A DNA stretch of 64,000 nt, from contig CAYVGJ010000005.1 in assembly GCA_964451165.1 (NCBI GenBank), positions 85,695 through 149,694 of the forward strand. The letters run 5' to 3'. Below, one piece after another: positions 1-64,000 of the stretch (the first letter of the stretch is position 1; every line of letters begins with the position of its first letter). Both the position numbers and the translations under genes were made by a program. A model generated the notes under the pieces. It made no database searches and was not told the DNA's origin. It saw only the letters and a list, made by a program, of their open reading frames with translations. This DNA comes from an uncultured bacterium. GTDB lineage: Bacteria > Auribacterota > Auribacteria > Auribacterales > Auribacteraceae.

Positions 1-3000
1 ACCGAACTGGACAGCCTGTTTATCTCAGCAATGATGAACAAGCAGGGCGGATTTATATCTGAAAGCCAGCATAATTACTTGACACGCAGAATAAAGAATA
101 CGCCTGTATCTACACTCTCAGATGGACTCAGGGATTTACCCGCACAAGAACTGGCTCAAGTTTTGCCATCTGTTTCGTTTGCTGATATTGCAAATGCAGC
201 GAGAATATTTAATCTTAGACAAGACGCTTCTTACAAAACAACAGATAATTTCACTTTCCAGAGATTCGTACGTGATATCAAACAAAAAGCATTATTCCCT
301 CAGAATATTATGCCTCAATTAATAAAAGATCCTGCAGGAAAAGATGATTTTATCTACAGTCTCAATGAAGCGGCAAAAGGTATATCTACTCTGCATATCG
401 CCGAATCCGTGCTTAACACACTCAAAAATACGCAATTAACTAATGAAGTAGAAATCCTTGGGGATTTGAAAAACCAATCTTTTATAAAAACCAACATGAT
501 TTCAAACGATTATTTAAAAAGAGTTCTAACGGTTTTATATACACTGGTCAAAGACCAAAAGAATTTTCATATTCGCGCTGAAGTTATCGCTCCACAAAAA
601 GAAGCGATCCTAACAGATCCCAACCAAAAGGTAAACCCCGAAAATCAATCCGTATTAGTTCGTAGATTAACAACACAGCAGTTCCAAGCATATATCGAAG
701 AAATAAAACGTGATAATCCATATATAGATTTCGGTGACCCACGCGGTATCGCCAATCCAATTACAGGAGAAATAGTCATTAATAAAGACCACCCGGCACA
801 TAAAGACAAAAATGGTATCGTCAATGTAGCTGAAATTCGACAGACACTTATCCATGAAAAATCTCATATGCTGATTTTCGCCAACTGGAATTTACTTACA
901 CAAATCGCTAATGACTTAAAAGGAAAAGAATATGAAAAAGATGAAATATTAAAATTATTCTACGAATTCTATTTCGATGAAAAAATCGAAAAGATTTCAC
1001 GCGAGCATAAAGACCGCCTGAAAGTAGATCCTCTTTGGAGCGAAAACGGCGAAATCTCATATGAAAGAATTTTAAGCGAACTTCTCGCCATCATAAACCA
1101 ATATCAGATGCTCCCATCCATAATGAAACGTCTTTCCTCTGTTCAGACAAAATTCATTATCAGGAACAAAGCTGTACCGGATACTATAAAACTTGCTGTT
1201 GAGCATTTGACAGAAATGTTTAAGAATAAAAGGACACTAATCGCATCAACAGTTACAGCACGCACAAAACTTAAGGCAATAGATCCACGGATATCGCAAA
1301 ACTTCATTTTTAATGCTGTTCAGCTGAAAACTCCACTCAATATGATCGATATAGAAAGAAACTCTCTTCCTCTGCCAAGTACACCCATAAAAACCGTCTT
1401 CAGTTTCGACGAATTGGAATCCAAAGTCACGGCTATGTGGGAACAATTAGGCAATGGCGACATAAACACTGGTAAAAGCAAAACAATATTAACAGCATTT
1501 CAAATTAATGAATTTACCGCCACAATCGACAAACTAAAACAAATATCATCAAAATCCGATTCTGAAACCCAGGATAAATTGAATAAAATAATTGAGTTCT
1601 GGACCAATTCTCTTGATGAAAATAGAATTCACATTTACCCGACATCGCCTGAAAGCTACACAATTACCGGAACTCATTTTATTCATACGACCAAAAATAA
1701 AGATATAATTTTACCGTCAGGATTCTATAATTACCTCAAGAATAAAGAATATCTCGCTAATGCTCTTGTTATGCTCGGCGCAAAAGAATTATCTATTAAT
1801 ACAGATGGATTTATAAATCTTTTTGGTGGCGATTCAATCGCCAAAATTGAGGAAAATCTCTATAACCAATACCTGAAAAATAGAGATTATCTACCTGTTA
1901 TAGAAGCAATTTTAAAACTATACGGCATTACCATAAATGAACTTTCCCAGAATGCGTTACTTGAAATTGTTGACAAATATGAGGATATATTAAAAATACC
2001 CGGTGCGGCACAACATCTTCAGAAAGTCAAAGATATCATTACAAACAATACTATTTTGGATTATAAACAATCCCCCATAGCAGAAGCATTTGAAATTTAT
2101 GCATCCGCATCACTATCACCAAACGAAGTGAATACATTGAAAAATACAGCTATTGAAATAAGTGCGCTTATATCGAGAGAAACATCTCCTCCTGTTATTT
2201 TTTTAATCGACAGTAATGCAATATCAGGGCCTGTTTCTCCTCAGAATTTTGCCATCCGTGAAACACTTGGAAGAATAAGGAACGAAATCGAATCTATCGG
2301 GCAAAGAAACACTATCATTATTGCCGTTGATTTGAATGGAAAAACAGCCGGAGAAATACGCACTAATCTGGATTCCAGTTTATTGCGTAAAGGCGGTTCA
2401 TCCGATGATTTCGATTATGTTGCTTCTTTCAAATCGTCGGTCGAACTTATGAACGCTCTCAAAGAAGAGTATCCGAACTTCACTGAGAATATTTTGAAAG
2501 CAAATATAAAAGTACTCGCTGTTGAAAATGACCTTCTTATAGATCTCGCTAAAGAAAATGGAATTCAATACAGGGAAATAAATGAGAGTTATTCCGCAAC
2601 AAAAGTTGCCGGAGGTGAAGGTCTTTTCCTTATAGATTACCTGCGGTCTCTTGGATTAAACAATTTTTTAACCGCCGATGACAAATCCGATATGGCTGTT
2701 GAATTAAGAAACTCCATTTATGTCATGGATATCCCGGACACAATAGATTTAACCGGCATACCTGAAACATTGAAACCGCTGATCGGTAAATTTGTAGAAA
2801 AAGTCAAATCGGCAAAATCCGATTCCTCATTCACACATATCCGCGACAATTTTATTGCCGAACAAAAGATTGAAACATCCGATATTGATTTTCTCAATCC
2901 ATTATTTGAAGAACAATTTCAACTAACAAAAATAAATATGTTATTTGATACATTATATTCTGAAAAAAATGACAATATCGATATGATTATTAATATATTT

Positions 3001-3438
3001 CAAAAACTTCAGCAAGCTTTCGCAGAAAACGATTCTCCTCAGTTTCAAAACGTTGTAGAAAAATTTTATATTAAGCTCAACGACAAGGAATCAGACTTTC
3101 TATATGAACATAATAAAGTGATCAATGAACTTATCCGCGAAGGTAAAGCATCCGAATCAATTTCGCAAAATGATCTGGCGACATTATATATATCAAAACT
3201 GATAAATCGTGACAATCTTTCAGAATCGGAACTATTTTCTGTCGAAAGCAGGATAATTAAAGGACTTAGCCATAATCCTATCCAATTTGGTAAACTAATG
3301 GATAGAATCGATCAGGCAGATATTGCCATTTCACCACAAATTAATAGATACTTTATTGTTGATACAGCTCCAAGAAAAATTCAGAAAGAATTGCGAACAC
3401 TCATAACAACACAAAAGCTGTTTGATGAATCCGCATAA
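1..3438 (+). CDS. Large hypothetical protein (at least 1135 aa) with a single HExxH zincin-like motif. The reading frame is open upstream of the ATG at 31, so the gene may be 5'-truncated by the window edge.
   Basis: Long ORF 31..3438. In-frame codons 1-30 contain no stop. The motif 'LIHEKSHML' (HExxH) lies at nt 853-867. No signal peptide or TM helix evident. Shares a C-terminal module with the giant ORF at 57696..64000. Confidence 0.6.
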   Translation, partial: TELDSLFISAMMNKQGGFISESQHNYLTRRIKNTPVSTLSDGLRDLPAQELAQVLPSVSFADIANAARIFNLRQDASYKTTDNFTFQRFVRDIKQKALFPQNIMPQLIKDPAGKDDFIYSLNEAAKGISTLHIAESVLNTLKNTQLTNEVEILGDLKNQSFIKTNMISNDYLKRVLTVLYTLVKDQKNFHIRAEVIAPQKEAILTDPNQKVNPENQSVLVRRLTTQQFQAYIEEIKRDNPYIDFGDPRGIANPITGEIVINKDHPAHKDKNGIVNVAEIRQTLIHEKSHMLIFANWNLLTQIANDLKGKEYEKDEILKLFYEFYFDEKIEKISREHKDRLKVDPLWSENGEISYERILSELLAIINQYQMLPSIMKRLSSVQTKFIIRNKAVPDTIKLAVEHLTEMFKNKRTLIASTVTARTKLKAIDPRISQNFIFNAVQLKTPLNMIDIERNSLPLPSTPIKTVFSFDELESKVTAMWEQLGNGDINTGKSKTILTAFQINEFTATIDKLKQISSKSDSETQDKLNKIIEFWTNSLDENRIHIYPTSPESYTITGTHFIHTTKNKDIILPSGFYNYLKNKEYLANALVMLGAKELSINTDGFINLFGGDSIAKIEENLYNQYLKNRDYLPVIEAILKLYGITINELSQNALLEIVDKYEDILKIPGAAQHLQKVKDIITNNTILDYKQSPIAEAFEIYASASLSPNEVNTLKNTAIEISALISRETSPPVIFLIDSNAISGPVSPQNFAIRETLGRIRNEIESIGQRNTIIIAVDLNGKTAGEIRTNLDSSLLRKGGSSDDFDYVASFKSSVELMNALKEEYPNFTENILKANIKVLAVENDLLIDLAKENGIQYREINESYSATKVAGGEGLFLIDYLRSLGLNNFLTADDKSDMAVELRNSIYVMDIPDTIDLTGIPETLKPLIGKFVEKVKSAKSDSSFTHIRDNFIAEQKIETSDIDFLNPLFEEQFQLTKINMLFDTLYSEKNDNIDMIINIFQKLQQAFAENDSPQFQNVVEKFYIKLNDKESDFLYEHNKVINELIREGKASESISQNDLATLYISKLINRDNLSESELFSVESRIIKGLSHNPIQFGKLMDRIDQADIAISPQINRYFIVDTAPRKIQKELRTLITTQKLFDESA

Positions 3439-4149: not shown

Positions 4150-4743
4150 CTATATCGCGATATTTTTATTTATTGATTCGTTAATTGCCTTTAAAATATC
4201 GTCTTTCCCTGAAGCTGATATGGCTGAGAAGAGAACGCAGTCATTTTCCTGTAGATTAAACATTTTCATCACCTTCATACGCATATTGATTGCTTTGTTT
4301 CTTGAAACTTTGTCGGATTTAGTCAGAACGATAAGCAAAGGTAGATGATAACTGGTTGCCCACTCGAAAAAAACAATATCTTTTTCCGTAGGGTCATGGC
4401 GGACATCGATTATAAAAATTATTTTTCGAATATTTATCGCATCTTTAAAATATGTTTCTATAAGTTTTCGCCATTCTTCCTGCATATTTTTGGATATTTT
4501 CGCATATCCGTAACCGGGAAGATCAACAAAATAAAACGATCCATTAACAATATAATAGTTTATTGATTGGGTTACACCGGGAGTAGCGCCAACCCTGATT
4601 AATTTCTTCTGATTAGTTAATGTCCTGATCAGTGACGATTTACCCACATTCGACCTGCCTGCAAAAACTACTTGAGGTAAATCATAACAGAAATGATCGG
4701 GATGTTTGGCTATTTTATGGAGCTGTATGGATTTAATCTTCAT
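4150..4743 (-). CDS. engB: Ribosome-biogenesis GTP-binding protein EngB/YsxC
   Basis: G1 motif 'GRSNVGKSS', 'DLPGYGYAK' and 'TKSDK' (G4). The track ORF runs to 4812, but the start is more plausibly the internal Met 'MKIKSI' (about 4743), giving an EngB-sized product of roughly 197 aa. Confidence 0.85.
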   Translation of the reverse strand: MKIKSIQLHKIAKHPDHFCYDLPQVVFAGRSNVGKSSLIRTLTNQKKLIRVGATPGVTQSINYYIVNGSFYFVDLPGYGYAKISKNMQEEWRKLIETYFKDAINIRKIIFIIDVRHDPTEKDIVFFEWATSYHLPLLIVLTKSDKVSRNKAINMRMKVMKMFNLQENDCVLFSAISASGKDDILKAINESINKNIAI

Positions 4744-4748
4744 ATTAA

Positions 4749-5819: not shown

Positions 5820-5864
5820 ATTATTTCTCCATAATAGAGTTAAAATTGCAGGGCAACAAAATAA

Positions 5865-20026: not shown

Positions 20027-21118
20027 TTAACCCTCCACAATCTGATTGTATAATTTTTCAAAGCTGTTTATCATTTTCACCGAAGAAAAATATTTTTTTA
20101 TTTTTTTTCTCGCGCTGGAACCTATCCGTTCCATAAAATCTCTATCATTAATCAATCTTAATATAGAATTAGTTATCTGATCAACATTTTTAGGTTCAAC
20201 AATCAGTCCGTCTTCCTCATTTTTAATCAATTCTTTCACATCGCCGACATCTGAGGCTATACAAGCTACCCCGCAAGCCATGGCCTCCATCAGAGCTACA
20301 GGCAACCCTTCCCACAATGACGGTAAAACAAAAATATCAGCATTTTGTAGATACGATGTGATATTATCGGAATAACCTTCAAAAAATATTTTATCATCAA
20401 GACCCAGTTCTTTTGATTTATATCTCAGATAATTTTCGAGTTTTCCCTTTCCGATAAGATATAATTTGAAATCAACGCCGGATTGAGCCAACTTCGAAAT
20501 AGCATCGAATAAATATTTATGCCCTTTTTTTTCAGTAAGGCTTGCAATATTAATAATATTTAAAATTCCAATATTTTTCTCCCGAACAGGATATTTTTCC
20601 ACATCCAGTCCATTATGTATAACAACAACCTTATCTTCCTTTATACCTGCTTGTTCTACAAGATACTTTTTACCGGCAATTGAATTTGACACTATAACAG
20701 AACATAATGACGACGTCATTTTATCAATATAATTATGATACCATTTGCGCCACAAATCCACATTGCGTTGAGAAGATATTATATATTTGTATCCAATAAG
20801 TTTACCGATAATTCTCCCCAAAATATTTGAATGAAACAGATATGTATGCAGTATATCGCCTTTATTTTTGCGCAGATAATAAACCAATCTTATCAGCGCT
20901 CCAAAATCTGTTTTTGATTTGAAACAAGGAGTAAAAAAAGGTATATTGTTTTTTTCGCACATCTCGCCAAGGGGTCCCCCGGGCATAAGAGAGATAACAA
21001 CCGATTCAAATCTGTCTTTGTTTAATCCGCAGGCGGTTTGCAGTATCATCCGTTCCGTACCACCGATGGCGGAATCAGTTGTAAGATGGATTATTCTCAA
21101 TTTATTGCGATTATTCAT
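20027..21118 (-). CDS. Glycosyltransferase family 4 (GT-B)
   Basis: C-terminal 'E...EGLPVALMEAMACGVACIASDVG' EX7E motif. Probable start 'MNNRNK' overlaps the asnB stop (ATGA). Confidence 0.75.
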   Translation of the reverse strand: MNNRNKLRIIHLTTDSAIGGTERMILQTACGLNKDRFESVVISLMPGGPLGEMCEKNNIPFFTPCFKSKTDFGALIRLVYYLRKNKGDILHTYLFHSNILGRIIGKLIGYKYIISSQRNVDLWRKWYHNYIDKMTSSLCSVIVSNSIAGKKYLVEQAGIKEDKVVVIHNGLDVEKYPVREKNIGILNIINIASLTEKKGHKYLFDAISKLAQSGVDFKLYLIGKGKLENYLRYKSKELGLDDKIFFEGYSDNITSYLQNADIFVLPSLWEGLPVALMEAMACGVACIASDVGDVKELIKNEEDGLIVEPKNVDQITNSILRLINDRDFMERIGSSARKKIKKYFSSVKMINSFEKLYNQIVEG

Positions 21119-22953
21119 TGTATTCCATTCTGATTTGCCCAAACCTGCCATGTTATAAGATTCCAGATTTGGCGGGTATGATCCTGTTTTCCACTCCGAT
21201 GTTCCAGAACAAGATTACTTACGTATTTTTCATTAAGAAAATTACTCTTCGATAACTTTTCTTTTCCAAGATATTTTGTAACTATTGAGCCGGTATCGTG
21301 TTTTATCCAATCTCTTACCGGAAAAGTAAACCCATGTTTTTCCCTTTTTAAAATCTCTTGCGGCAAAAAACCTTCAAACATTTTCTTTTGCAGAACTTTT
21401 TTATTGCCACCCTCGATTTTTAAACCGATTGGAATTGAAAACACCGTTTTAATCAATTCAATGTCAAGATAAGGTACCCTCGCTTCCAAGCCATTAGCCA
21501 TACTGAGTTTATCGACTTTCATCAACAAATTTTCGGGAAGATAATTCAGCAAATCCCATAAAATCATTTTTTCTATAAAAGAATAACTTTTTTTCGGATT
21601 AAAGATTTCATTCAAATTTATTTCAGCGAAATTTTGTTTTTTTATCAATCCGCTATACTCATTTTTTAAAAATACCCTGTCCCATAAAACAATTTTTTCA
21701 ATAGAATCTATTGAAAAAAACAGGCTCGCGATTTTTTTTATCTTCCTTGAACCCGGAACTAAAGTTTCTATCAGATCAGGTGAAAAACAACCTGAATACT
21801 TAAGAAAACGCAAGTAATTATACTTGTTATAACCACAAAATAGTTCATCTGCGCCCTCACCTGAAAGTATAACTTTCACATCCTGAGACGCTTTCTCAAA
21901 TATAAGATATGTCGGGATCAAGGCTCTATCAGCCACAGGCTCATCCATATGGTATAAAACTCGCTCAATCAACTCAAGGTATCCGGACTCAACATTTAAT
22001 ACCGTATGATTCGTATTAAAATGCTGAGCAATCATTTTGCTGTATTTTTCCTCGCTGTAATCAGGATATTTGTTAAAAACCACAGAGAATGTCGGTATAT
22101 CTAAAGCGCCAAGTTCAGCTAAAGCCGCGACAATTGAGCTTGAATCGATACCTCCACTCAAAAGGACACCAAGAGGTACATCGCTCATCAACCTTTTTTT
22201 CACAGCATTAAAAAATTTATCCCTTAAATTTTCTATCATCGCTTTTTCGTTCACGATAGTTTCCGTATTGAAAAAATCCTGCAATACCCAATATGAATGG
22301 AGATGAAGTTTTCCTTTTTCTAAAACCAGTATCGATCCGGCAGGAAGTTTGAATATATTCTTATATATTGTTTTAGGAGCAGGAACATAATTCAGCGTCA
22401 TATAGAGAGCAACAGATTCCTCATCAATATTTTTGCTGACGGAAGGATGTTCAAACAAAGCTTTTATTTCCGACCCAAAAACAAAACCATTTTGGTCATG
22501 GAAATAATAAAGAGGTTTTTTTCCCATTCTGTCCCGAGCGAGAATAAGTTGATTTAACTTTTTGTTCCATAGACATATGGCAAACATCCCATCAAGCCGG
22601 TTAACAAAATCTAATCCATACTGTTCATACAAATGAATGATTACTTCTGAATCACAATTTGATTCAAACACATGTCCTTTTTTTATTAATTCTCCGCGCA
22701 ACTCAATATAATTATAAATTTCTCCATTGAAAACGAGCACAAGTGACTTATTTTCATTAAAAATAGGTTGGTGCCCGCCCTGGATGTCTATTATACTCAA
22801 TCTCCTGAAACCAAGCTCAACATAATCATCCGAATAAGAACCTTCATCATCCGGGCCCCGATGTTTAATCGAATCAATCATCTTTCCCAGGATTTCATTA
22901 TCTTCCAAAGGGTTTCTATTTTTATATTTATAATATCCGGCTATTCCACACAT
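21115..22953 (-). CDS. asnB: Asparagine synthase (glutamine-hydrolysing) family amidotransferase
   Basis: N-terminal 'MCGIAGY' Ntn glutaminase and 'SGGIDSS' PP-loop. 612 aa. Embedded in a glycosyltransferase operon, as with WbpS-like enzymes. Confidence 0.85.
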   Translation of the reverse strand: MCGIAGYYKYKNRNPLEDNEILGKMIDSIKHRGPDDEGSYSDDYVELGFRRLSIIDIQGGHQPIFNENKSLVLVFNGEIYNYIELRGELIKKGHVFESNCDSEVIIHLYEQYGLDFVNRLDGMFAICLWNKKLNQLILARDRMGKKPLYYFHDQNGFVFGSEIKALFEHPSVSKNIDEESVALYMTLNYVPAPKTIYKNIFKLPAGSILVLEKGKLHLHSYWVLQDFFNTETIVNEKAMIENLRDKFFNAVKKRLMSDVPLGVLLSGGIDSSSIVAALAELGALDIPTFSVVFNKYPDYSEEKYSKMIAQHFNTNHTVLNVESGYLELIERVLYHMDEPVADRALIPTYLIFEKASQDVKVILSGEGADELFCGYNKYNYLRFLKYSGCFSPDLIETLVPGSRKIKKIASLFFSIDSIEKIVLWDRVFLKNEYSGLIKKQNFAEINLNEIFNPKKSYSFIEKMILWDLLNYLPENLLMKVDKLSMANGLEARVPYLDIELIKTVFSIPIGLKIEGGNKKVLQKKMFEGFLPQEILKREKHGFTFPVRDWIKHDTGSIVTKYLGKEKLSKSNFLNEKYVSNLVLEHRSGKQDHTRQIWNLITWQVWANQNGIQ

Positions 22954-22955
22954 TA

Positions 22956-24077
22956 TTATTGAGCCACTTTCTTATAAATCTCTAATGTTTTTCTTGCGGT
23001 ATCTTTCCATGAAAAATTTTTTATATGTTCCAATCCGGATTTTATCAATTTATCCGCAAGCTCTTTATCATTCAGTAAACATAATATTTTTTCAGCTATA
23101 TCTTCCGCATTTTTGGGATCCGCAAACAAAGCGTTTCCGCCGGTTATCTCGTGCCCCCATTCCATATCGCTTACAACAACCGGAACACCGCACGACATCG
23201 CTTCCAGAACAGTCAATCCGAACCCCTCATATAACGAAGGTAATACAAACACCGATGCGTTGTTGTATAATTCTATCAGTTTTCTTTTATCCGTAAAACC
23301 GGTAAAAAAGACAAACTCTTTTATTTTATCATCAGATATTATATCCGACTCCGTCAGATATGACATTCCCTTAATTTGTTTATATTCCCCAACAATTACA
23401 AGTTTAACATCCATATTCCGCTTGTTTCTGATTATATTTATCGCTTCTACAAGCTTTATTATATTCTTTCTCCGGTCAATTCCTCCAACATAGAGAACAA
23501 AACCTTTTCCGATCCCCAATTCAACGTTATTTCTTATTTCAGGATCAATCCTGAAGTCCTCGTCATATGAAAGTGGAATATGGTTCACTTTGTCATATTT
23601 TAAGCAAAAATAGCGGTCTATATCTTTTTTTGAGGATAATGAATCGGTAATAATTATTCTGGTGTTGATTCTTATTAAAAAATATATGAATCTGATCAGA
23701 AAAAGCATCCAACTCGAAACGAGTTTATTCTCTTTACATAAAACCGGGCTTATATCATGCAAAGTTACTACCGTTTTAACAAACGGAAACAACCAGACAG
23801 AATTATCCGGAAAATGAAACACATCTATTTTATCTCTAATAACATGAAACGGGAGCTGAAAATTTTTCCATATAAAATTATTTAGTTTTCGGGCAATAAT
23901 TCTCTGAGTTATTTTGCTATTTGATTCAATGTTATCAATCTGTTTATCCGTATATAGATATATATGGAAATCCTCATCAATTTCAATCAGCGATTCAAGA
24001 AGTTGGCGAAGGTATATCTCAAACCCTCTTCTATTTTTATTTAGAATGATTCCTGAAATTCCTATATTAATTCCCAT
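22956..24077 (-). CDS. Glycosyltransferase family 4 (GT-B)
   Basis: 'LPSLYEGFGLTVLEAMSCGVPVVVSD' motif. 373 aa. Confidence 0.7.
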   Translation of the reverse strand: MGINIGISGIILNKNRRGFEIYLRQLLESLIEIDEDFHIYLYTDKQIDNIESNSKITQRIIARKLNNFIWKNFQLPFHVIRDKIDVFHFPDNSVWLFPFVKTVVTLHDISPVLCKENKLVSSWMLFLIRFIYFLIRINTRIIITDSLSSKKDIDRYFCLKYDKVNHIPLSYDEDFRIDPEIRNNVELGIGKGFVLYVGGIDRRKNIIKLVEAINIIRNKRNMDVKLVIVGEYKQIKGMSYLTESDIISDDKIKEFVFFTGFTDKRKLIELYNNASVFVLPSLYEGFGLTVLEAMSCGVPVVVSDMEWGHEITGGNALFADPKNAEDIAEKILCLLNDKELADKLIKSGLEHIKNFSWKDTARKTLEIYKKVAQ

Positions 24078-25268
24078 TTAGTTTTCTTGATTCAGGTTTA
24101 AAATTCGACGATAAATTTTTTCCACATTTTCACCATAACTTTGTGCTGAAAAAACATCTCTTGCCCGCCCCCAGGCCGCCTCAGATAAACGCCGACGTAA
24201 CATCGGTTCTTCAGACATCAGAACAATTGATTCCGCAAGTTTCTGGTAATCATCAGGTTTAAACAGAACTCCTGTTTTCCCGTCTATGATAATTTCCGGT
24301 ATTGCACCAGAATTCGAACCGATTACAGGAATTCCTTCGGACATAGCTTCTATTATAACTCTGCCGAACGGTTCGGATATTGAAGTAATCGCCAAAACAT
24401 CGAGATCTTTCATTAACTCTGCGGAATCTGTCCGGTACCCTAAGAATTTTACTTGTTTTTCCAGATGCCATCGTTTAAGCAGATCGTACAACCATTCTTT
24501 ATACTGTATATCCACTTGCATCTGTTTTGGATTCGACGTAACACAATCGCCTATAATCACTCCATAGATATTGTTTCGCGTTTTTGAGACAAGTTTAAAC
24601 GCTTCAAGAAACGTTTCCATTCTTTTGAAAGCTGTAATTCGTCCCAACATACCCACAATAAAACAGGGATTTTTTATATCCATCGCCCGTATCAGCTTAT
24701 CTGATTTATAAGATACTCTTTGAAATGGTTTAACGCTCACACCATTATAAACAACATTTATTTTTTCAGGATTGCGCTTAAACGATCGATAAAACGGTTT
24801 TGCGACCTCATTGGATATACATATAACGGCATCTACCATTTTATAAACTAATCCTCCCGTCAGACCAAACTTGCTATTATAATTTCTCACATGCCATACT
24901 ACCGGACGCCCGGAAAAAGTAGCCAACGCGATACAATGAAAAACCGATGTGGTTTTATTCGCATGTATAATTTTTATTTTATTCTTTTTTACCCATCTCG
25001 CTTTAAAAAAACCGAATAAAAATAAGTTCAATATCCAGTACAAAAACTTAAATGGATTATATGAACGATAAATTATCGGCATCCAACATACTTTTACACT
25101 TGCTCCCAAAGATATCAGTTCATCATGAAATATTCCCTTATTCGGCAAAACGCAGAATACTTTACAACCTGTTTGTATAAAATACTTTACAAGTTCATAC
25201 ATTGATTTTTCGCCACCACCTGGCTCGCCACCATGATCTGAAATAAAAAGAATTCGTTGATCCGTCAT
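24078..25268 (-). CDS. Glycosyltransferase family 4 (GT-B)
   Basis: 'SISEPFGRVIIEAMSEGIPVIGS' motif. 396 aa. Confidence 0.75.
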   Translation of the reverse strand: MTDQRILFISDHGGEPGGGEKSMYELVKYFIQTGCKVFCVLPNKGIFHDELISLGASVKVCWMPIIYRSYNPFKFLYWILNLFLFGFFKARWVKKNKIKIIHANKTTSVFHCIALATFSGRPVVWHVRNYNSKFGLTGGLVYKMVDAVICISNEVAKPFYRSFKRNPEKINVVYNGVSVKPFQRVSYKSDKLIRAMDIKNPCFIVGMLGRITAFKRMETFLEAFKLVSKTRNNIYGVIIGDCVTSNPKQMQVDIQYKEWLYDLLKRWHLEKQVKFLGYRTDSAELMKDLDVLAITSISEPFGRVIIEAMSEGIPVIGSNSGAIPEIIIDGKTGVLFKPDDYQKLAESIVLMSEEPMLRRRLSEAAWGRARDVFSAQSYGENVEKIYRRILNLNQEN

Positions 25269-55312: not shown

Positions 55313-55729
55313 TTAGTTTTTCTTTTTTTCTTCAGTCTCTTTCTTCAAACCGTAAATAACACCACTGCTACCGTCTGTACGCCTGAATACTCCTGCCATC
55401 AGGTTAGCGTCTTCACCGAGCTGTAGAGTGCATCTATAGACATCTTTCTGATATGAATATGTCATTTCGATAGTCGTTCTTTTTACCAATCCACTTACTC
55501 GCCCTTGCTGTGAATCATTCGCGGCTACGGTCTTTCCATCAATTCTTCCTGATGGATCCTGTGTAATTTGAAGTGTATTATCAGTAGTATTACCTTTATA
55601 CGGACCGATAAGAACCTGTGAGTGCAGTTCCCATGTCCCTTCAAGTGAACTTCCGGCATGAACAAAATTTGCGCTTGATATTAATGCCAGACTGCTGACA
55701 TAAATGAAAAAAACTCTTTTTATACTCAT
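55313..55729 (-). CDS. Small secreted protein, lipocalin-like/'GTWEL' family
   Basis: Signal peptide 'MSIKRVFFIYVSSLALISSANFVHA' and a 'LEGTWEL' motif common in small periplasmic beta-barrel (lipocalin-like/DUF) proteins. Confidence 0.5.
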   Translation of the reverse strand: MSIKRVFFIYVSSLALISSANFVHAGSSLEGTWELHSQVLIGPYKGNTTDNTLQITQDPSGRIDGKTVAANDSQQGRVSGLVKRTTIEMTYSYQKDVYRCTLQLGEDANLMAGVFRRTDGSSGVIYGLKKETEEKKKN

Positions 55730-55755: not shown

Positions 55756-57087
55756 TTAATTTTTTTCACCATTGATATAATTTAGACAGTTTGGCTTACA
55801 CGGACATTCAAATGCAATCGGAAATTCCACAATTTTCTTCTGATTTTTCAATTCAAACAATCTCGGTACCATTTTATCCCTCAAATCTTCCGGACTGATC
55901 GGATTAACATATATTTTTGTTCCACCCTCAAAACCTGCGGGATTGTTTGTTCTCCATTTAATCATTATATGCCACGGAATATTTTCTTTGGCATCCATCG
56001 GGCTGTAATACCACTCTTCATTACAGGGAATCTGACTCCCCATAGCCGCATGACAGGCATGTACGATATCACTTATACCCCTTATCTCTTCTTTTGTATG
56101 ATCCTGCGGCATCGCGTTTTTGCTTTTTGAATATATCGCTATTGTCGGATACCTGTGCCCTACTTCCACAAAAGCTATCGCGTAATCATTTTCCGCAAAC
56201 ACAAGATTATGGTAACTCGCAAAATTAACTGCCTTTTCATTATACACATTTCTATTTTTTCTGTAAAGTTCTATTTCATCTTCCATGGCAACACCCCATT
56301 CATCTATCGCCACAAGTTGCTTATGCAAATGATCAAACGATGCTCCCGCCATCGATAACCAGTTCTGAAAAACAGAAATATAACGCACATACCTGTTCTG
56401 AGCAAATATATCTTTCATGGCATCTATTGTGAACAAGAAATACTGATAGTGTTCTTCCGGTGTTAATTCGCCTGAAGAACATAATTCGACATCATAAACA
56501 GCACCTGGTTTATAATGTTTTCCTGCAACAATAATCTCATGAGCGCCACCAAAAAAAGCATCAGCCATTTTCAGCTTTTCCTGAAGGCTGATAACTGTCC
56601 TGACTTCCTCATCGCCAATTCCAGATAACTTTAACTTCATGTTTATTATGTTTATAACATGCTCTATTCCTGCAGCAGAAGATAGATAATCGTTTTTATG
56701 CTGGATCTGATCTTTAGTCAATTCAAATCCATAATTTTTCATCCAATAATCATAAGTTACTATTTCAAAAAGATTCGGGACCCTTCTGAACTCAGCTTTT
56801 GTATTTAACAGTTCTTCTGCTTTTACATTCTTTAAAGGAACATATTTCCCATCAATTTTAACAAGCCTCGCTTTTTCAGGAGGTGTATTCAGATACTTTT
56901 TCTCACAAAAATTACAATGCCCTTCAACTTCATGTTTATCAATTTTCTTGGCGTTTCTTGGTATTTCATTTGTAATCGGTTTTTTGCCTCTTCCGGGAAC
57001 AGTCCATACTTCGGTACCGGTAAACGGATTAACCTGTTTTATGGTACCGTCAGACATTTTATAGTAAGTTTCAAACAAATTGCTCAT
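55756..57087 (-). CDS. GalT/Apa-like nucleotidyltransferase (HIT superfamily, HxHxQ branch), divergent
   Basis: N-terminal 'EGHCNFCEK' CxxC and a central 'FDHLHKQ' (H-x-H-x-Q) in a two-half-domain-sized protein (443 aa). C-terminal 'FECPCKPNC'. Confidence 0.45.
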   Translation of the reverse strand: MSNLFETYYKMSDGTIKQVNPFTGTEVWTVPGRGKKPITNEIPRNAKKIDKHEVEGHCNFCEKKYLNTPPEKARLVKIDGKYVPLKNVKAEELLNTKAEFRRVPNLFEIVTYDYWMKNYGFELTKDQIQHKNDYLSSAAGIEHVINIINMKLKLSGIGDEEVRTVISLQEKLKMADAFFGGAHEIIVAGKHYKPGAVYDVELCSSGELTPEEHYQYFLFTIDAMKDIFAQNRYVRYISVFQNWLSMAGASFDHLHKQLVAIDEWGVAMEDEIELYRKNRNVYNEKAVNFASYHNLVFAENDYAIAFVEVGHRYPTIAIYSKSKNAMPQDHTKEEIRGISDIVHACHAAMGSQIPCNEEWYYSPMDAKENIPWHIMIKWRTNNPAGFEGGTKIYVNPISPEDLRDKMVPRLFELKNQKKIVEFPIAFECPCKPNCLNYINGEKN

Positions 57088-57310
57088 TCAAATCCTCCTT
57101 AAATAATACTTTTGTAAAAAATTATTTAATTATGATACTTATATAAAATCCAAATTCAAAGAAAATTTTAAAAACATAATTATTATCGTAATTTTAAATT
57201 GAAAATTCATCATTTTTAGATAACTCTTTAATTTGACTTAATATTTTTCTTGAATGGTTGTTTTTTTTTGTTAATATTTATTTAAATATTCAACAGTGAA
57301 GAGGGAATAT

Positions 57311-57637
57311 ATGCAAATTAAAACAAGATCAAGGAATAATTGGACTATTTTTGACTTATCCGGCAAACTTAACGAAATAACATCCAAAACCTTAGCAAAC
57401 GAAGTTGAAAAAAAATTAACTGCCGGAGAAAATAAGATATTATTTAATTTTAACGAATTGGATTTTATAAATAGTTCCGGACTGGGAAGCCTCATATCTA
57501 TTTCCAAAAGAGTTAATCAGGCAAAAGGACAACTTAGATTTTATAATTTACAACCTTTTGTATCCGATTTATTCAATATCACGAAATTACACAACGTGTT
57601 CTCGATTTATTCTACCGAAGACGAAGCCGCTTCGTAA
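57311..57637 (+). CDS. STAS-domain protein (anti-sigma-factor antagonist, SpoIIAA-like)
   Basis: AGAGGG SD; 'FDLSGKLN...LDFINSSGLGSLISI' STAS consensus with the phosphorylatable Ser position in 'NSSGLG'. About 109 aa. Confidence 0.75.
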   Translation: MQIKTRSRNNWTIFDLSGKLNEITSKTLANEVEKKLTAGENKILFNFNELDFINSSGLGSLISISKRVNQAKGQLRFYNLQPFVSDLFNITKLHNVFSIYSTEDEAAS

Positions 57638-57695: not shown

Positions 57696-60600
57696 TCACG
57701 CGAATTCTTCTGCCATTTTCATGCGTTCATATTCACGCAAATACGCACTGCTTATTTTCTGTTTCGGCGACTGAAGCACAAGATTAACGAGTGATTGGCT
57801 GAATAAATCATCGAATAGAATATTTCCAATATTTTCGCCAAGAAGTGATTTTAATGCACCAGAGAATTCGCTTTCAAAGATTTTCAGGTTAAGATCGGGA
57901 GTCAAATTGATTTTATTATCGAGAATATAAGCTGTAATTGATTTATAAAGTATATCTTTTAATACATCGTCTTTCTGGTTAAAACCATACTGGGTTCTTA
58001 TGAAATTCAACAAATCTTCAACAGAACCGAATTTACTGAATTCGGTTTCCGATTGTTTTATCTGATCATATAACTTATTCACTTCAGGATTTTTGGTTGT
58101 ATCCTGATTATTAAACGCGAGAATTTTTGTTTTTGCCGGTAAATTTGTATACCCATTTATTGAGGCTTGTACAAATAGGTTTAATGATCCTACAAAAGTT
58201 TCAGCCATAGATTCTCCGTTCTCGTTATCGATAGAGAACCCCGGATTGACTTCCATTATCTGAACACCCAGCTGACGGGCTATTTCCCGTGCCTGCTGGT
58301 TTCCTGATTCGGTTATTAATTTGAGATTCTGGTTATTCACCGAATAGTTGTTCTGAACAAGCTGGATTAGATCCTGCATGGTTTTATTGCCATCGCCAAG
58401 GTCTTTTGCGAAAACATCCACCTGTAATTCCGTTATCCTGAGCGCAGACAACTGATCGAGAACCGCTTCAGAAGTATAATTTTCAGATACTATAACAAAT
58501 TTTACGTCTTTACCTTTATCTTTAACCATCTGTTCAATAAACTGAATTGTTTCTTTCAACATAAAGTTAGACTCATTGACAGAAATTTTTCCGTTTTGCG
58601 CAAGAGCATCAAAATTAATTACGAAAACGTAACGGTTATCGGAATTCTTCTCACTTACAAGCGGATTTATGTTACTGATAAGAAAACTTCTGATTTCATT
58701 TTTGACTTTATCGTCGGTTTTCGCTAAATCAAAAATGTTTTCTCCAAGATTATCCTTCAGCACCTGAACAAGCATCACTCTCCTGTCGGTATTGGTTTCC
58801 TGAATCTCAACCTGCGACATATAAGGCATTTTCTTTGATACAAACGAACTTATTTCCGGTTTTAACTGCGGCAATAGATTTTTCAGATCTCCACTCAAAG
58901 GCAATCCAAGATATAAATTGGCTATTATTGAGACTATCGCATTCCTTATTTCCACGGTAGATTTATCTTTCATACTTTTATATAATTCGGGGAACACCGC
59001 TTCCTGAGCGGAACTCAATTCGATAGCCTGGTCAAACAAAAGCCCTATATAACCCTTTATTTTTTCATCAAACACCCTGTTGCGCAAATCGGGTGAAGAA
59101 AGATTCTCAAGCTGTGTTAATAACCTGTCAACCACAGGATCCGCAATAAGTTTATTCTGGACAACATCGATACCTATATTCGCATCAACAGAAGCTAAAA
59201 TAGATTTTAACTTTGTCGCTGAATCCTGGTCAAGAGATGGGATAATCCGTTCAATAAATTTATCATCGAATTTAGGTGTTTTATACTCAACAACCGATGA
59301 AGATATATTTTGTGGGGATGCCGCGCCTAAAACATCAGTAATATAACTGTTAATCTTTGTCTTTAATGTGGCAACCGCCGCAAGATAATTCGCACTGTCC
59401 TTATGACCGGAAGAAAGATATGTATTGTTAACAATATCCGATATAAATTTCATAAAGATATCTACTCTGCCTTTGTTGCTTTCAACGGCTTTAAAGAATT
59501 TAGCGCCGAGTTCGTCATCGGATACTTCAGTAACACCGGATATGTTACTCAGACATATTCTCATTATTTCTTTTTCATATTTGTTTACATCCTTCATAAT
59601 CAATTCAATATTATTCGGTTTGTCCTGTGTTACGGCAAACGATTTATTCGCTTCATCTATTGTGAGTTTATCAAACAAATCAACCAGTTTCGTAAGCCCT
59701 GACTTTATCTGTTCCAGTGAAGTTATGGATGGACGTTGTATCTGATTCATCTCATCGCTTATCTTTTTCAATCCATTGGAAATATCCGCAAACGCGTCTT
59801 TAATCTGAGAATTATTTGCGATTATTTCAGCATTATCCACAGCCGATTCGCCGGCAATTATCATCCGGTACATATCGTTCACCGAAGCCAGCATTATGCG
59901 TAGAGCGTTAACAGCCTGGCTATTTTTCCGTAAATCTTCGTTATTTAAAAATTCTTGCACAGCAAAATCATTCAATATTCTTTTCAATATGAAATTGTAA
60001 CCGTACAGATCAACTTTCCGACCATTAACGGAACTATTATTTTTTAAAGAATTAAAAAATTCCTCAACAGTTACAGCAGAAACAGGATTACTCGTCTTAA
60101 ACGCTTTAAACCCGGCTGTTTCAATTAATTTATTGGAAATATCATTGAAATAATCATTCACACTGCCAATATCTTTCAAATTAAATACCAAATCAATCGC
60201 CGCCATTTCATCATCTGGAAGTTGAAACATCGCTTTTATTGATTCATTGGTTTTTAGGCTGTTAATGAATACCTCAGGATTGTCCACTCCAGCACTTTCA
60301 AGCATATTTTTAACCATAGCAAACTTCTGCGCAGACTGGCTGATATCAACTTCCGGAACAACATAAACATTACCGTTCGAATCGATTTTTAAATTCAAAT
60401 TCAGTTTGGCAACCAGACTTTTCAACACTTCAAGCTGAATATTCGAAAATTGCCCAATTAAAACAGGTTGTGTTTCAAATATCGTATCGGTAATTACGTT
60501 TCGCTGTTCCTGTAATCCTATGGCACTATTGTTAAGCCAGTCGGTCAAATTCTGTTTACTTTTTGCGATTTGCTTCAAGACCAGCTTCATGGTTTTCATT

Positions 60601-63600
60601 TCGCCGATTGACATGCCGTAAGGATTGATCACTCCCATATTTCGTAAAATACTCACTTCATCCGCAGAGAAAATGTCTTTTTCATTCAAACTCATTTCCA
60701 TAAACTTTTTATCCACCGTAAAACCTATAATCTGAGATATTTTTTCAGAATAAATCTGATAAATGGAATTCATTGTTACAGGGCCTTCGACAGGTTTATC
60801 TGAAGGAAGGAAAAATGCCTTTACTTTCGAGACCAATCCTTCACCAAGGAATGTCTGAAGAAGATTCATTGTCTTTTGCACATCTCCCTTATTTTGCTCG
60901 ATCATGGTTATAATTATTGGAGCTACCTGAGACCCTTCTTCTTTACCAAGATAATCAATAAGATTATTTGTCACCCTGTTTCGGATACCTGCCAGCTCAT
61001 TTTCCTGTACTCCTGAAGATAGTTTCTGGAAATACTGAAAATTATCTCTGATAATTGACAACTGGTTATAATTATCAGCAAAAGAATCTTTCAATCCTTT
61101 ATCAACAGTCGATTGCCAGAAATAAACCCAATCGATAAAATTGCTCTTTGATATAGCGGCTTCGGGAGTGGAAACAACCGTTTTATCCTGCATACGTGCA
61201 AGTTCAGCCTGTTCAGCCTGAGAAAAATCAGCCATTGCCTGAATTAATACATTCTGGAACATATTTCTTGAAAAATCAGCCATGTTATCCATAAATCCGA
61301 TTTTAACAAGATTATCAAGCCTGCTTTTCAGAGAATCTATCTTTATTTGTATAGCCTGTTTTCCGGCATCTCCTTCCGGAAGTTTGTCCAACTGAACCTG
61401 GAGTATATTTATCTGATCTTCTATCGGCTGAGATATTAGTTTGGATCTCTGCCTGAACTCCTCGATTTTCTTATCTTTCAATAAATTAGCCAATGGAGGA
61501 GCATCCGGCGGTACAAATCCAATACCTATAATCAACCTGAAGTTCTGATCCCCAAATACATTTTTAGCCTCTATATCCGCAATCAGATCTTTCATCGGCT
61601 TAAGATTTTCTTCAGGTGTTTCCTGCTGAACCATACCATCTAAATCCTTATTCAATATAGAGAGAATAGCGGATTGCAGATTCTGTGAAAAATCCGATTC
61701 CAATTTTTTTCTCGCCTGTTCGGGCAACTCATTTATTTTTAATTTATCATTTATAAACGAAGCCAGTTTTTCAATTAATTTATCTTCAGGTTGGCCTTTC
61801 ATTGCCCCTATGTCGTAAGCTTCTTTGATGGATATGCCCCACCTTGAGGATATTTTTTCAGCAAGCTCTTCCCCGTCGAAAGAATTAAACATGCTCTCCG
61901 CCTCTAATTTCAAGGCGCTCTTCAGATTCTCTATCGATGTGGTGAAGCCAGACGTAAATAAACTGTTGAAATATCTCACCTGCAATGCAGTTAATCCGGT
62001 AACAAGAATGTGATCCCCTACTATTTCTATCTTTGCGTCAGGAGCGAAAACAGAGATAAAATCATTTAATTTGCCGATTTTATATTTTTGCAATTCTTCA
62101 CCAAGATAGCCGGAAGGATCTATCTTGTTCATATCCATATTATCCCTGATTACGGCAAGCGTCGGGTTCTGATCCATTACTTTACCATCGGCATCAACCC
62201 AGACTTTATCCGTCATCAATCGTTCAACCGCTTTTGCCGGCGAACCTTCGGAATACGATTGCAAGTTGATCATCGGATTTATTATCTGATCCTGTATTTG
62301 GAGATAAGCATTAATTGCTTCCGCTTTCTGCGGATTCGACAAGTTTGCAACAATAAACTGGCCCACATTAGCCGATATGGAACCGATCGTTTTCAAAACA
62401 TCATATTTTAATCCGGCCGACAACCCTTTTTCGGTAGATAACTTATTCCATAAAATGAGCTCGTTCAGCATTGAAGCGATATAATCCGGCGATTCAGCAA
62501 TCATGTTGGATGCAATCGCCTGTTGAATGATTCCGAGCAGGTCTTTTGCCTTTTGCTCATTCTGCACAGTTTCCGGACGATTTACCACCATAAAGTCGAT
62601 AGATGTTCCTTTATTCAAGGCAACCTGAATCTTCTTGTTCTCAATTTCTCCGGCTTTATCGGGATATTGCTCAATAATATTCTTAAATATTGAATCAGCG
62701 GTTTGGAAATTTCCGGCATTAATAAAAAATTCAGCTTGTTGCATAAGTATTTCCGGATAAAATCTATTTGTCTCGTTTATTCCTGCGACAAACTCATCAA
62801 TCGCTTTTTGAGCATCTTCCGGTTTGGTATTTTTATTCTGCGAAATTAGGTTTTTGAAATTCAAATAGTCTATTTGATCGCTTAATTTTGATTTTTTGTC
62901 TCTATCATCAATCAATGACAATTTATCATTTGCTTCTTTTAATATGGAATCTATTTTCTTTGTATCCATAGACCGCTGTCCGATTAAATAATCCACCTGT
63001 TTTACAAGCAATTCGGATATATCTGAAGCATTGTTCTCTTTAGCAATGTTTATTGCCATTGAAATCAATGTACGCGCTGTTTCATTATAATAAGCCGCTG
63101 TTTCTTGTGAACCGACAATATTATTCGCCCTCAAAAGTTCCGCCTGCTGTGGCGATAATAAATCCAAACCGGATATGTTCCTGATCGGTGTAGCTTCTCG
63201 TTTCGCTATAATCGAATCCGCAAGTTTCAATCCCTGTTCAAGAGATACAGCTACACCGGATTTCAGCAGTTGTGAAGCAAGAGCGTCTTTATCCAATGTA
63301 TTTATATCAATTCGATCTTTAACCTGTTCAGCCATAAGGTAATTCAAGTTCGCATAAGATTTCAGGGTATCTTTATCTGTCGGCATAAGAAGTGCCGCAA
63401 TGTTCATAAGAGCATGAGCGGTTTCTAATTTTGTTACAAGTTCTTCACCGTAATATTTGCCAGATTCTATTTCCGAAATCAAAGCATTCGCCCTGAAAGA
63501 AACATGTTCCAAGATGTTAACAGAACTTCCTGACCGCGAATAAGTTTTTAGGATAAAATCAGAAATTTCGTTCCTGGCAAGTGTCGAGTACCCGGAAAGA

Positions 63601-64000
63601 ACTGTCTGCAAAGTATTAAAGAATTTATCTCCGTATAGCGACAATCCGTTGGCAATATTATTAATCCATATTTCATCCGCAAAAACCCATTGAGCGGATG
63701 GATCCAGCTTAGAAGGCGCAATCACAGGGATTATATTGTTCATGCTGATATTTAATTCCGATAATATTTGCGCAACCTGCTCATAAACAGATTTATCGGC
63801 AGGTGAATTAAATTTTCCGTCGTTTTTGATCTGAAGGTTTCTGATTAATGGATAATTATCCTCTTTTCCCTTTATATACTCGGTAAACTGACGGGTAATT
63901 ATTGTCTGATTCAATCCGACAGGTATATTCTCGTTGCCCAGATTAATTAATCCGACAAGCTGATCAGCGATTCTTCCCGATTTATCCTTCAATTGCGTAA
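57696..64000 (-). CDS. Giant hypothetical protein (more than 2098 aa), N-terminus beyond the window edge
   Basis: Single uninterrupted reading frame of about 6.3 kb. The first codon in the window is TTG, with the frame still open to the window boundary. Largely helical composition; no TM, signal peptide or internal repeat seen. The C-terminal region contains a module paralogous to part of ORF 1..3438. Confidence 0.6.
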   Translation of the reverse strand, partial: TQLKDKSGRIADQLVGLINLGNENIPVGLNQTIITRQFTEYIKGKEDNYPLIRNLQIKNDGKFNSPADKSVYEQVAQILSELNISMNNIIPVIAPSKLDPSAQWVFADEIWINNIANGLSLYGDKFFNTLQTVLSGYSTLARNEISDFILKTYSRSGSSVNILEHVSFRANALISEIESGKYYGEELVTKLETAHALMNIAALLMPTDKDTLKSYANLNYLMAEQVKDRIDINTLDKDALASQLLKSGVAVSLEQGLKLADSIIAKREATPIRNISGLDLLSPQQAELLRANNIVGSQETAAYYNETARTLISMAINIAKENNASDISELLVKQVDYLIGQRSMDTKKIDSILKEANDKLSLIDDRDKKSKLSDQIDYLNFKNLISQNKNTKPEDAQKAIDEFVAGINETNRFYPEILMQQAEFFINAGNFQTADSIFKNIIEQYPDKAGEIENKKIQVALNKGTSIDFMVVNRPETVQNEQKAKDLLGIIQQAIASNMIAESPDYIASMLNELILWNKLSTEKGLSAGLKYDVLKTIGSISANVGQFIVANLSNPQKAEAINAYLQIQDQIINPMINLQSYSEGSPAKAVERLMTDKVWVDADGKVMDQNPTLAVIRDNMDMNKIDPSGYLGEELQKYKIGKLNDFISVFAPDAKIEIVGDHILVTGLTALQVRYFNSLFTSGFTTSIENLKSALKLEAESMFNSFDGEELAEKISSRWGISIKEAYDIGAMKGQPEDKLIEKLASFINDKLKINELPEQARKKLESDFSQNLQSAILSILNKDLDGMVQQETPEENLKPMKDLIADIEAKNVFGDQNFRLIIGIGFVPPDAPPLANLLKDKKIEEFRQRSKLISQPIEDQINILQVQLDKLPEGDAGKQAIQIKIDSLKSRLDNLVKIGFMDNMADFSRNMFQNVLIQAMADFSQAEQAELARMQDKTVVSTPEAAISKSNFIDWVYFWQSTVDKGLKDSFADNYNQLSIIRDNFQYFQKLSSGVQENELAGIRNRVTNNLIDYLGKEEGSQVAPIIITMIEQNKGDVQKTMNLLQTFLGEGLVSKVKAFFLPSDKPVEGPVTMNSIYQIYSEKISQIIGFTVDKKFMEMSLNEKDIFSADEVSILRNMGVINPYGMSIGEMKTMKLVLKQIAKSKQNLTDWLNNSAIGLQEQRNVITDTIFETQPVLIGQFSNIQLEVLKSLVAKLNLNLKIDSNGNVYVVPEVDISQSAQKFAMVKNMLESAGVDNPEVFINSLKTNESIKAMFQLPDDEMAAIDLVFNLKDIGSVNDYFNDISNKLIETAGFKAFKTSNPVSAVTVEEFFNSLKNNSSVNGRKVDLYGYNFILKRILNDFAVQEFLNNEDLRKNSQAVNALRIMLASVNDMYRMIIAGESAVDNAEIIANNSQIKDAFADISNGLKKISDEMNQIQRPSITSLEQIKSGLTKLVDLFDKLTIDEANKSFAVTQDKPNNIELIMKDVNKYEKEIMRICLSNISGVTEVSDDELGAKFFKAVESNKGRVDIFMKFISDIVNNTYLSSGHKDSANYLAAVATLKTKINSYITDVLGAASPQNISSSVVEYKTPKFDDKFIERIIPSLDQDSATKLKSILASVDANIGIDVVQNKLIADPVVDRLLTQLENLSSPDLRNRVFDEKIKGYIGLLFDQAIELSSAQEAVFPELYKSMKDKSTVEIRNAIVSIIANLYLGLPLSGDLKNLLPQLKPEISSFVSKKMPYMSQVEIQETNTDRRVMLVQVLKDNLGENIFDLAKTDDKVKNEIRSFLISNINPLVSEKNSDNRYVFVINFDALAQNGKISVNESNFMLKETIQFIEQMVKDKGKDVKFVIVSENYTSEAVLDQLSALRITELQVDVFAKDLGDGNKTMQDLIQLVQNNYSVNNQNLKLITESGNQQAREIARQLGVQIMEVNPGFSIDNENGESMAETFVGSLNLFVQASINGYTNLPAKTKILAFNNQDTTKNPEVNKLYDQIKQSETEFSKFGSVEDLLNFIRTQYGFNQKDDVLKDILYKSITAYILDNKINLTPDLNLKIFESEFSGALKSLLGENIGNILFDDLFSQSLVNLVLQSPKQKISSAYLREYERMKMAEEFA

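Follow-up and report, generated by a model that had tools for sequence, protein, structure and literature searches.

The 64-kb window analysed here (the whole stretch of 64,000 nucleotides, from contig CAYVGJ010000005.1) carries at its two edges the ends of two giant genes, whose products are called proteins A and B below. A first-pass annotation, made by eye from the letters of the window, had proposed that the two proteins share a module of about 150-170 aa. Both giant open reading frames (ORFs) are present at the window edges and both run off the window; they lie on opposite strands, the strand of B being absent from that annotation:

1..3438, forward strand: protein A; frame 1 is open from the first base and is translated into 1145 aa followed by a stop codon.
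57696..64000, reverse strand: protein B; 2100 aa in translation with the stop codon at 57696-57698, in frame from nt 63998 and open to the window edge.

We are confident that A and B derive from two distinct, very long multidomain proteins of an Auribacterota-related bacterium, of which the window shows the C-terminal parts, and that each of them ends in a copy of one homologous cassette. The homologous region is longer than the 150-170 aa first proposed and reaches the C-terminus of both proteins. A-type proteins align with each other from about 35 residues before the module through the last residue, and MAFFT places B against them over the same span, tail included, with the B end ...LVLQSPKQKISSAYLREYERMKMAEEFA opposite the A end ...YFIVDTAPRKIQKELRTLITTQKLFDESA. 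The two cassettes are organized as follows:

2086..3435, forward strand: A-type C-terminal cassette, 450 aa, composed of a leading helix, a HAD-fold alpha/beta domain, a helical domain and a tail.
2194..2655, forward strand: HAD-fold (Rossmannoid) core of the A cassette, cassette residues 37-190, containing the module of the first-pass annotation (about nt 2190-2600).
3412..3435, forward strand: A tail QKLFDESA, nearly invariant in A orthologues; other A-type groups have DESA, NEAA, DEAA or DTSA tails.
57699..58748, reverse strand: B-type C-terminal cassette, B aa ~1751-2100, homologous to the A-type cassette by hhalign.
58248..58634, reverse strand: HAD-fold core of the B cassette (beta1 to beta5), corresponding to the module first placed at 58220-58650.
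57699..57782, reverse strand: B tail LVLQSPKQKISSAYLREYERMKMAEEFA, aligned with the A-type tail by MAFFT.

With high confidence, the cassette is a unit of 350-450 aa composed of a cap-less HAD-fold domain, a helical domain of variable length and a conserved terminal helix whose last residues are [DE]-x-[SAF]-Ala-COOH. Its last residue is Ala in every cassette, preceded by DES, NEA, DEA, DTS, EQS or EEF. A-type and B-type cassettes have in common the motifs GKIS..NF..[RK]ET, F..D and, at the end, P[KR]..[IV]......[DE]x[SAF]A, and the distance between the match and the C-terminus does not vary between families. The cassette is also under unequal constraint in the two proteins. In the B family, whose orthologues are 30-34% identical overall, conservation over the 2100-aa alignment peaks in two windows, first the C-terminal 30 residues (80% invariant) and then the module start (57% invariant); taken as a whole, the cassette is about twice as conserved as the remainder (27.6% versus 13.3% invariant columns). 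Conservation of the A-family cassette is close to the protein average.

The relationship between the two cassettes was examined by pairwise and profile methods. A Smith-Waterman alignment of module against module scored 60, against 33.9±6.0 for shuffled sequences, with 2 of 2000 shuffles reaching 60. This result is suggestive, and on its own too weak for a pair picked by eye from a space of 1145 × 2100 residues. A hidden Markov model (HMM) of the B module, built from three sequences (B and its orthologues on contigs L005 and L006), was then run blind over the window in all six frames, as 374 segments of at least 50 aa. Besides B it recovered only A, at aa 699-873 (E-value 7e-4, 13.7 bits), the runner-up segment having an E-value of 0.21. 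The reverse scan of the window with the A-type HMM missed B (E-value 0.41); hence, it is profile-profile comparison, together with the intermediate P0010-type family described below, that carries the link between A and B. In hhalign, the first A-type profiles matched the B-type profile with E-values of 6e-5 and 2e-4 (probability 65% and 44%), a 13-sequence A-type profile with 5e-6 (86%), and the P0009/P0010-type subfamily alone with 1.2e-7 (94%, over 212 columns). The real comparisons score 64-67, column-shuffled B alignments 16.8±2.8 (maximum 24.4, n=100), the reversed alignment 20, and other regions of the 2100-column B alignment at most 19. Furthermore, each cassette profile, when searched against the full-length alignment of the other family, matches the module alone, in both directions, at E-values of about 1e-3, the next match being at about 0.4. 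HMMER and HH-suite both recovered the three stretches that the first-pass annotation had aligned by eye, in the same register.

Whether chance or convergence could produce this resemblance has to be weighed, for instance between unrelated Rossmann-like beta-alpha-beta domains of similar hydrophobic periodicity that happen to lie near two C-termini. Several results count in favour of such an explanation and against a common origin: whole-protein BLASTP of A against B is not significant (best E-value 0.55, and 0.78 for the high-scoring segment pair in the register seen by eye), the reverse HMM scan fails as described, A-type and B-type cassettes are only 15-20% identical in the MAFFT alignment, and the AlphaFold model of the B cassette is poor (mean predicted local distance difference test score, pLDDT, 50) and, since A-type sequences are in its alignment, not independent. 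On the other hand, the hhalign scores lie far above every shuffled and reversed control, the match keeps a constant distance from the C-terminus in every family, motifs are held in common, and members of the families occur together in single genomes and have exchanged other blocks. A chance resemblance is therefore very improbable, and descent of the A and B cassettes from a common ancestor is, as judged from these alignments, very likely. The claim of a shared module thus holds by profile methods and fails by pairwise BLASTP, and no known housekeeping domain was matched. A recent duplication or gene conversion of the cassette was rejected in view of the low identity (15-19%) between the two types. 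Internal repetition of the module was rejected as well, there being one copy each in B and in the L005 and L006 orthologues, and scans of the 64-kb window with the B-type and A-type HMMs found no further copies.

The fold of the cassette could be predicted from the A side. An AlphaFold2 model based on a 9-sequence A-type alignment has a mean pLDDT of 85.9 and a predicted template modelling score (pTM) of 0.82. It begins with a long leading helix, followed by a beta-alpha-beta-alpha-beta-alpha-beta-alpha-beta arrangement (residues 37 to ~190) and an extra strand at 211-215, and continues through the helical domain to the terminal helix 434-449, being confidently folded through the last residue. 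The Rossmannoid three-layer alpha/beta core of HAD structures is present. Database searches did not assign the cassette to any family: none of the 12 cassettes scanned was given a family, HAD included, by Pfam-A (E-values up to 10) or NCBIfam, PDB sequences searched by profile yielded noise only, and Foldseek found no significant match in the PDB. The window parts of A and B are likewise devoid of Pfam-A and NCBIfam matches, in agreement with the first-pass annotation, which could name no family for either protein.

HAD enzymes are defined by their catalytic motifs. Strand 1 ends in motif I, DxDx[TV], which provides the nucleophile Asp and the Asp+2, strand 2 in motif II, a Ser/Thr, and strand 4 in motif IV, a set of acidic residues (GDxxxD or DD); motif III is a Lys/Arg. 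At the motif I position, A-type cassettes read LID-[SYHK]-[NKAD], with DYDT in P0005 alone, the P0010-type reads LFP, the P0014-type [VL]DSS and the B-type IN-F-D or IS-F-D; DxDx[TV] is not maintained and no residue is conserved across the four groups. The putative motif II position reads AVD in the A-type, AVS or SVS in the P0010-type, AVN or AVD in the P0014-type, and IVS or ILS in the B-type (IVSE, IVSD, ILSD). After strand 4 the sequences read VE-ND, GE-DN, ES-GS, TS-SG, VP-NG or TESGN, without a conserved Asp/Glu at the place of motif IV. None of the canonical HAD motifs falls on the residues that every group keeps: an Arg, F-x-x-D where strand 3 begins, a Lys where strand 4 begins, an Ala and a Leu. 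Since neither the nucleophile nor the acidic motifs are conserved across groups, the domain is most likely a pseudo-enzyme kept for binding, and judging from these motif positions it most likely lost, or never had, HAD chemistry. The module is thus best described as a HAD-fold pseudo-enzyme domain of a new sequence family with a narrow distribution.

The opposite possibility is that the module, though divergent, works as a HAD-type hydrolase or phosphatase and supplies all giants with one common catalytic step. Its fold is HAD-like, beta1 does end in an Asp in the A- and P0014-types, P0005 reads DYDT, and genuine HAD domains are frequent in giants of this kind: Hydrolase_3 occurs in P0014 and P0010, and HAD_2 is named among the common domains of the Omnitrophota giants called Archaeovorins. 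However, the nucleophile position is occupied by Pro in the P0010-type and by Asn/Ser in the B-type, the Asp+2 and the acidic residues of motif IV are conserved nowhere, no HAD profile of Pfam (E-values up to 10) or NCBIfam matches, and the cross-group invariant residues appear to lie off the canonical active-site sheet edge, as judged from predicted strand positions only. Collectively, these observations make a shared catalytic function highly improbable.

Protein A represents the C-terminal 37% of a protein of ~3069 aa, the N-terminal two thirds of which fall outside the window. The protein P0001 (3069 aa) is 98.7% identical to A over its ungapped C-terminal 1145 aa, and a full-length A gene was found on contig L007, with the same following gene order. 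When 1.84 billion representative proteins were searched exhaustively with A (phmmer), only 14 relatives emerged, six of which are full-length orthologues (P0001-P0006, 2992-3120 aa). Others match the module region of A alone, namely P0009 (4462 aa, E-value 1e-17), P0010 (6562 aa, E-value 2e-14), the fragment P0013 and P0014 (2084 aa). Four of the 14 relatives were checked for source: two come from Candidatus (Ca.) Auribacter fodinae and two are metagenomic. One metagenome scan added four further such C-termini, L011-L014. The A-type cassette is common to A, P0002-P0006, P0009, P0010, P0013, P0014 and L011-L014.

The A family begins with a hydrophobic segment resembling a Sec-type signal peptide and has no other transmembrane segment. 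Its first ~800 residues are common to P0014 (P0001 aa 5-797 against P0014 aa 12-780, 179 bits). This region, located behind the signal-like segment, contains the conserved motifs DAHCN..AQ and GGFH and is not assigned to a family. A further element lies in the middle domain of A:

853..867, forward strand: HExxH motif (HEKSH), outside the shared cassette; HEK[STA]H is invariant in 6/6 full-length orthologues.

The domain bearing this motif (A aa ~200-460) has no Pfam or PDB sequence match and may be a new metallopeptidase-like domain. It recurs in P0008, together with LRV repeats, in P0011, together with a protein kinase and WD40 propellers, and in P0012.

Two orthologues of B were found among the GTDB species genomes. 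One, on L005 from the metagenome-assembled genome (MAG) 'bacterium AUK210', has at least 3782 aa and is 34% identical to B; the other, on L006 from Candidatus Auribacter fodinae SURF_26 (phylum Auribacterota, of the Planctomycetes-Verrucomicrobia-Chlamydiae, or PVC, group), has at least 5374 aa and is 30% identical. The L006 ORF (2..16126) contains at aa 326-1255 a SecA DEAD-like domain (SecA_DEAD, E-value 7e-24) and a weak match to the SecA P-loop; the corresponding part of B falls outside the window. Each public contig with B or an orthologue ends inside the giant gene (L001, 1-6067; L003, 1-2674; L005, 1-11351), and assemblies seem to break systematically within this gene. A transmembrane anchor in B was considered and rejected, as none is present in the parts seen. 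A metagenome scan with the B-type alignment found no relative. A word-index protein search with A, B and the B cassette returned nothing either, which probably reflects a limit of the index, since the same collection contains P0010.

Altogether, giants of at least four orthologous groups end in the cassette: the A-type (2992-3120 aa), the P0014-type (2084 aa), the P0009/P0010-type (4462 aa in P0009 and 6562 aa in P0010) and the B-type (at least 3782 and at least 5374 aa in the two orthologues). Outside the cassette, the giants differ or consist of blocks shuffled between groups. P0014 carries a genuine HAD-IIB domain (Hydrolase_3). P0009 has a protein-kinase domain (E-value 6e-16) and a weak match to family-2 glycosyltransferases (E-value 5.8e-4, below the Pfam cut-off). 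P0010, named in UniRef as a glycosyltransferase 2-like domain protein, has weak precomputed Pfam matches to Glyco_trans_2_3 and to the HAD family Hydrolase_3. Clusters of transmembrane helices are found in both P0009 and P0010. A block of ~700 aa is common to the L006 protein (aa 2446-3161), P0010 (aa 420-1166, 397 bits) and P0009 (aa 1233-2010), with scores of 377-397 bits, and is missing from the L005 orthologue and from the equivalent position in B of the window. The sharing of this block by the B-type and the P0009/P0010-type indicates that large blocks are exchanged between giant families.

Several carriers can be present in one genome. P0010 (RJP59437.1), P0014 (RJP57928.1) and the L006 protein all come from one Ca. 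Auribacter fodinae MAG, which shows that one genome has at least three, and probably four, giants with the cassette. L011, L012 and L014 similarly come from one metagenome. The proposal of a genome-encoded set of very long proteins with a common cassette is thereby borne out.

Housekeeping genes surround the carrier genes, which lie scattered and keep their synteny from one genome to another; the first-pass annotation was right in placing both A and B in such surroundings. A SpoU methylase gene lies downstream of A, in conserved synteny. Downstream of B are:

57296-57637, forward strand: STAS-domain gene.
55756-57087, reverse strand: DUF4921 gene.
55313-55729, reverse strand: 138-aa ORF.

The order of the DUF4921 gene and the 138-aa ORF is kept beside both B orthologues, on L005 and L006; a STAS match (49% identical) is found near the L006 orthologue only and is absent in L005. 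The neighbours of B as a set are 46-79% identical to those beside the orthologues. The giant genes evolve much faster than their neighbours, B being 30-34% identical to its orthologues against 72-79% for the adjacent DUF4921 gene. The genes between A and B are ordinary and include those for the SpoU methylase, a GTPase, ornithine/aspartate carbamoyltransferase, EF-G, signal peptidase II, QueC and glycosyltransferases; the public contig L001, which matches the window, also shows IspD/IspF and several aminoacyl-tRNA synthetases. The window has a G+C content of 33-39%, carries most genes on the minus strand, with a negative GC skew across its whole length (1-64000), and contains no tRNA or tmRNA genes in its 64 kb. 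At 20027-25268 on the reverse strand, three family-4 glycosyltransferases stand in a run with an asparagine synthase, followed by a spermidine-synthase-like protein of 677 aa and a TPR protein of 679 aa; this run is probably a surface polysaccharide locus.

This genomic setting also bears on the first suggestion for the nature of the giants, which likened them to polymorphic-toxin-like effectors or to cytoskeletal or surface-layer (S-layer) proteins on account of their length, their lack of a known family and the presence of several paralogues per genome. Polymorphic toxins have a conserved N-terminal trafficking region, a variable C-terminal toxin tip and an immunity gene immediately downstream. 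A and B show the reverse polarity, with a conserved C-terminus and a variable remainder, and no toxin/immunity pair: no immunity-like small gene follows either of them, the downstream positions being taken by the SpoU methylase gene and by the STAS and DUF4921 genes, in housekeeping synteny. Nothing points to a cytoskeletal or S-layer role, as the other domains of the giants are enzymes (HExxH, family-2 glycosyltransferase, kinase, HAD, SecA-like) rather than coiled coils or S-layer repeats. We consider all of these identities hardly credible.

What the cassette does can be approached from its distribution. Since it is the sole element common to giants of unrelated enzymatic content, always stands at the extreme C-terminus and is the most constrained part of B, we propose that it could serve as their common handle. 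In such a scheme, the pseudo-HAD domain would be retained for binding rather than for phosphoryl transfer, and the cassette would bring the completed giant, by docking or sorting, to a partner that all carriers share, perhaps a component of the envelope or of an export pathway, or else a second giant. Part of the recognised surface might be formed by the invariant terminal helix and tail, and the property that the carriers share could be localisation, export, anchoring or assembly through this one partner. A role as a non-catalytic C-terminal docking or sorting handle, deduced from conservation and position, is a tentative assignment that we hold with less than even conviction. For the reading as a whole, joining the identity of the cassette to the handle role, we lean slightly in favour.

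Some observations weigh against this scheme. The seen parts of the B family have no hydrophobic or transmembrane segment and no signal peptide, so the cassettes may not all work in the same compartment. Examination of the contexts of A, B, P0010 and P0014 revealed no neighbour gene common to all four groups, and a shared gene neighbour was accordingly rejected as the candidate partner. The Asp at the nucleophile position is kept in the A- and P0014-types, leaving room for residual chemistry there. Finally, no partner came to light, and docking or sorting is proposed by inference.

A narrower alternative is that the cassette acts as a strict C-terminal export signal for a dedicated secretion machine, needed for translocation alone, in the manner of the C-terminal domain (CTD) of the type IX secretion system (T9SS) or of type I secretion system (T1SS) signals. 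The T9SS CTD is a beta-sandwich of 70-100 aa, and the T1SS signal consists of an RTX repeat region and an unstructured C-terminal signal. The cassette resembles such signals in being always extreme C-terminal, with an invariant acidic-then-small tail, and the A family carries signal peptides. Furthermore, a cluster similar to those of type IV pili (T4P) or type II secretion systems (T2SS) lies outside the window, on the strand opposite to the full-length A gene and just upstream of it (L007 1-9843). It comprises two secretins, a 309-aa ORF and Amuc_1100-like, PilM/FtsA-like and Amuc_1102-like genes. Between the secretin cluster and the giant A gene, directly adjoining the latter, are genes for a patatin plus cNMP-binding protein and a DUF6941 protein. 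T2SS-E ATPase genes are found ~8 kb from P0010, and giants of Omnitrophota are reported beside T2SS/T4P-like loci (bioRxiv 10.1101/2023.11.21.568195). However, the predicted module is folded, alpha/beta and helical, and 350-450 aa long, unlike known C-terminal signals; Pfam and NCBIfam searches gave no T9SS CTD or RTX match; and B and P0014 are without flanking secretion genes, the secretin cluster standing beside one of the four groups only. A strict export signal seems unlikely, and the present data do not separate it from permanent docking.

Returning to the docking or sorting handle, a more specific version would make the pseudo-HAD domain, the helical domain and the [DE]-x-[SAF]-Ala tail a previously unrecognised tag for an export or surface-attachment pathway of very long Auribacterota proteins. 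This version, drawn by analogy with the T9SS CTD or the dockerin-cohesin pair, is rather doubtful; the partner of such a tag could possibly reside within the secretin/PilM/Amuc_1100-type cluster adjoining gene A.

It is still not understood how bacteria of the PVC-group candidate phyla make, place and use proteins whose lengths run from thousands to tens of thousands of residues; such giants are common there and almost entirely unannotated. One module that closes several otherwise unrelated giants per genome offers a handle for a search for shared partners, and allows the family to be defined in new genomes, where Pfam-A, NCBIfam and the PDB sequence set do not recognise it. It also clearly illustrates how a HAD-fold domain can be recruited for what is probably a non-enzymatic function. 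Were the cassette merely a decayed enzyme domain without a common role, the finding would shrink to a new domain family of narrow distribution.

Compared with known systems, the carriers are closest in kind to the giant Omnitrophota proteins termed Archaeovorins, which their description defines as 'giant' at lengths of at least 30,000 aa, with SecA DEAD-like domains inside the giants and T2SS/T4P-like loci nearby (West-Roberts et al. 2023, bioRxiv 10.1101/2023.11.21.568195). The carriers resemble them in having a host from a candidate phylum of the PVC group and a T2SS/T4P-like locus beside one gene (A). In domain content the likeness extends to single carriers, with a SecA DEAD-like domain in the L006 orthologue of B and a mosaic of the glycosyltransferase/HAD/kinase type in P0009, P0010 and P0014, the window parts of A and B having no recognisable domain. 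They differ in length, the carriers being ten times shorter (2-6.6 thousand residues versus at least 30 thousand), and in phylum. Term searches of the Archaeovorin paper, a 2026 Omnitrophota preprint and two Auribacterota papers gave no description of the shared C-terminal cassette, which, for a search by terms, does not prove that none exists.

In its logic, the cassette recalls the T9SS CTD and dockerins: one conserved terminal module is carried by cargo of unrelated enzymatic content, with several cargo proteins per genome. The resemblance is a functional analogy only. The cassette is alpha/beta and helical in its model rather than a beta-sandwich or an EF-hand pair, measures 350-450 aa instead of 70-100 aa, and has none of the CTD or RTX matches that T9SS and T1SS signals would show. 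Within the HAD superfamily, the closest members are cap-less C0-type proteins such as magnesium-dependent phosphatase-1 (PDB 1u7o). The cassette differs from the superfamily in lacking sequence-profile similarity to any HAD family and conserved motifs I and IV, and its HAD-fold part is joined to a helical domain and a conserved tail and occurs solely at the C-terminus of proteins of 2000-6500+ aa. The carriers belong to a class already known as mosaic and poorly annotated, and what is new here is a domain family built on a well-known fold.

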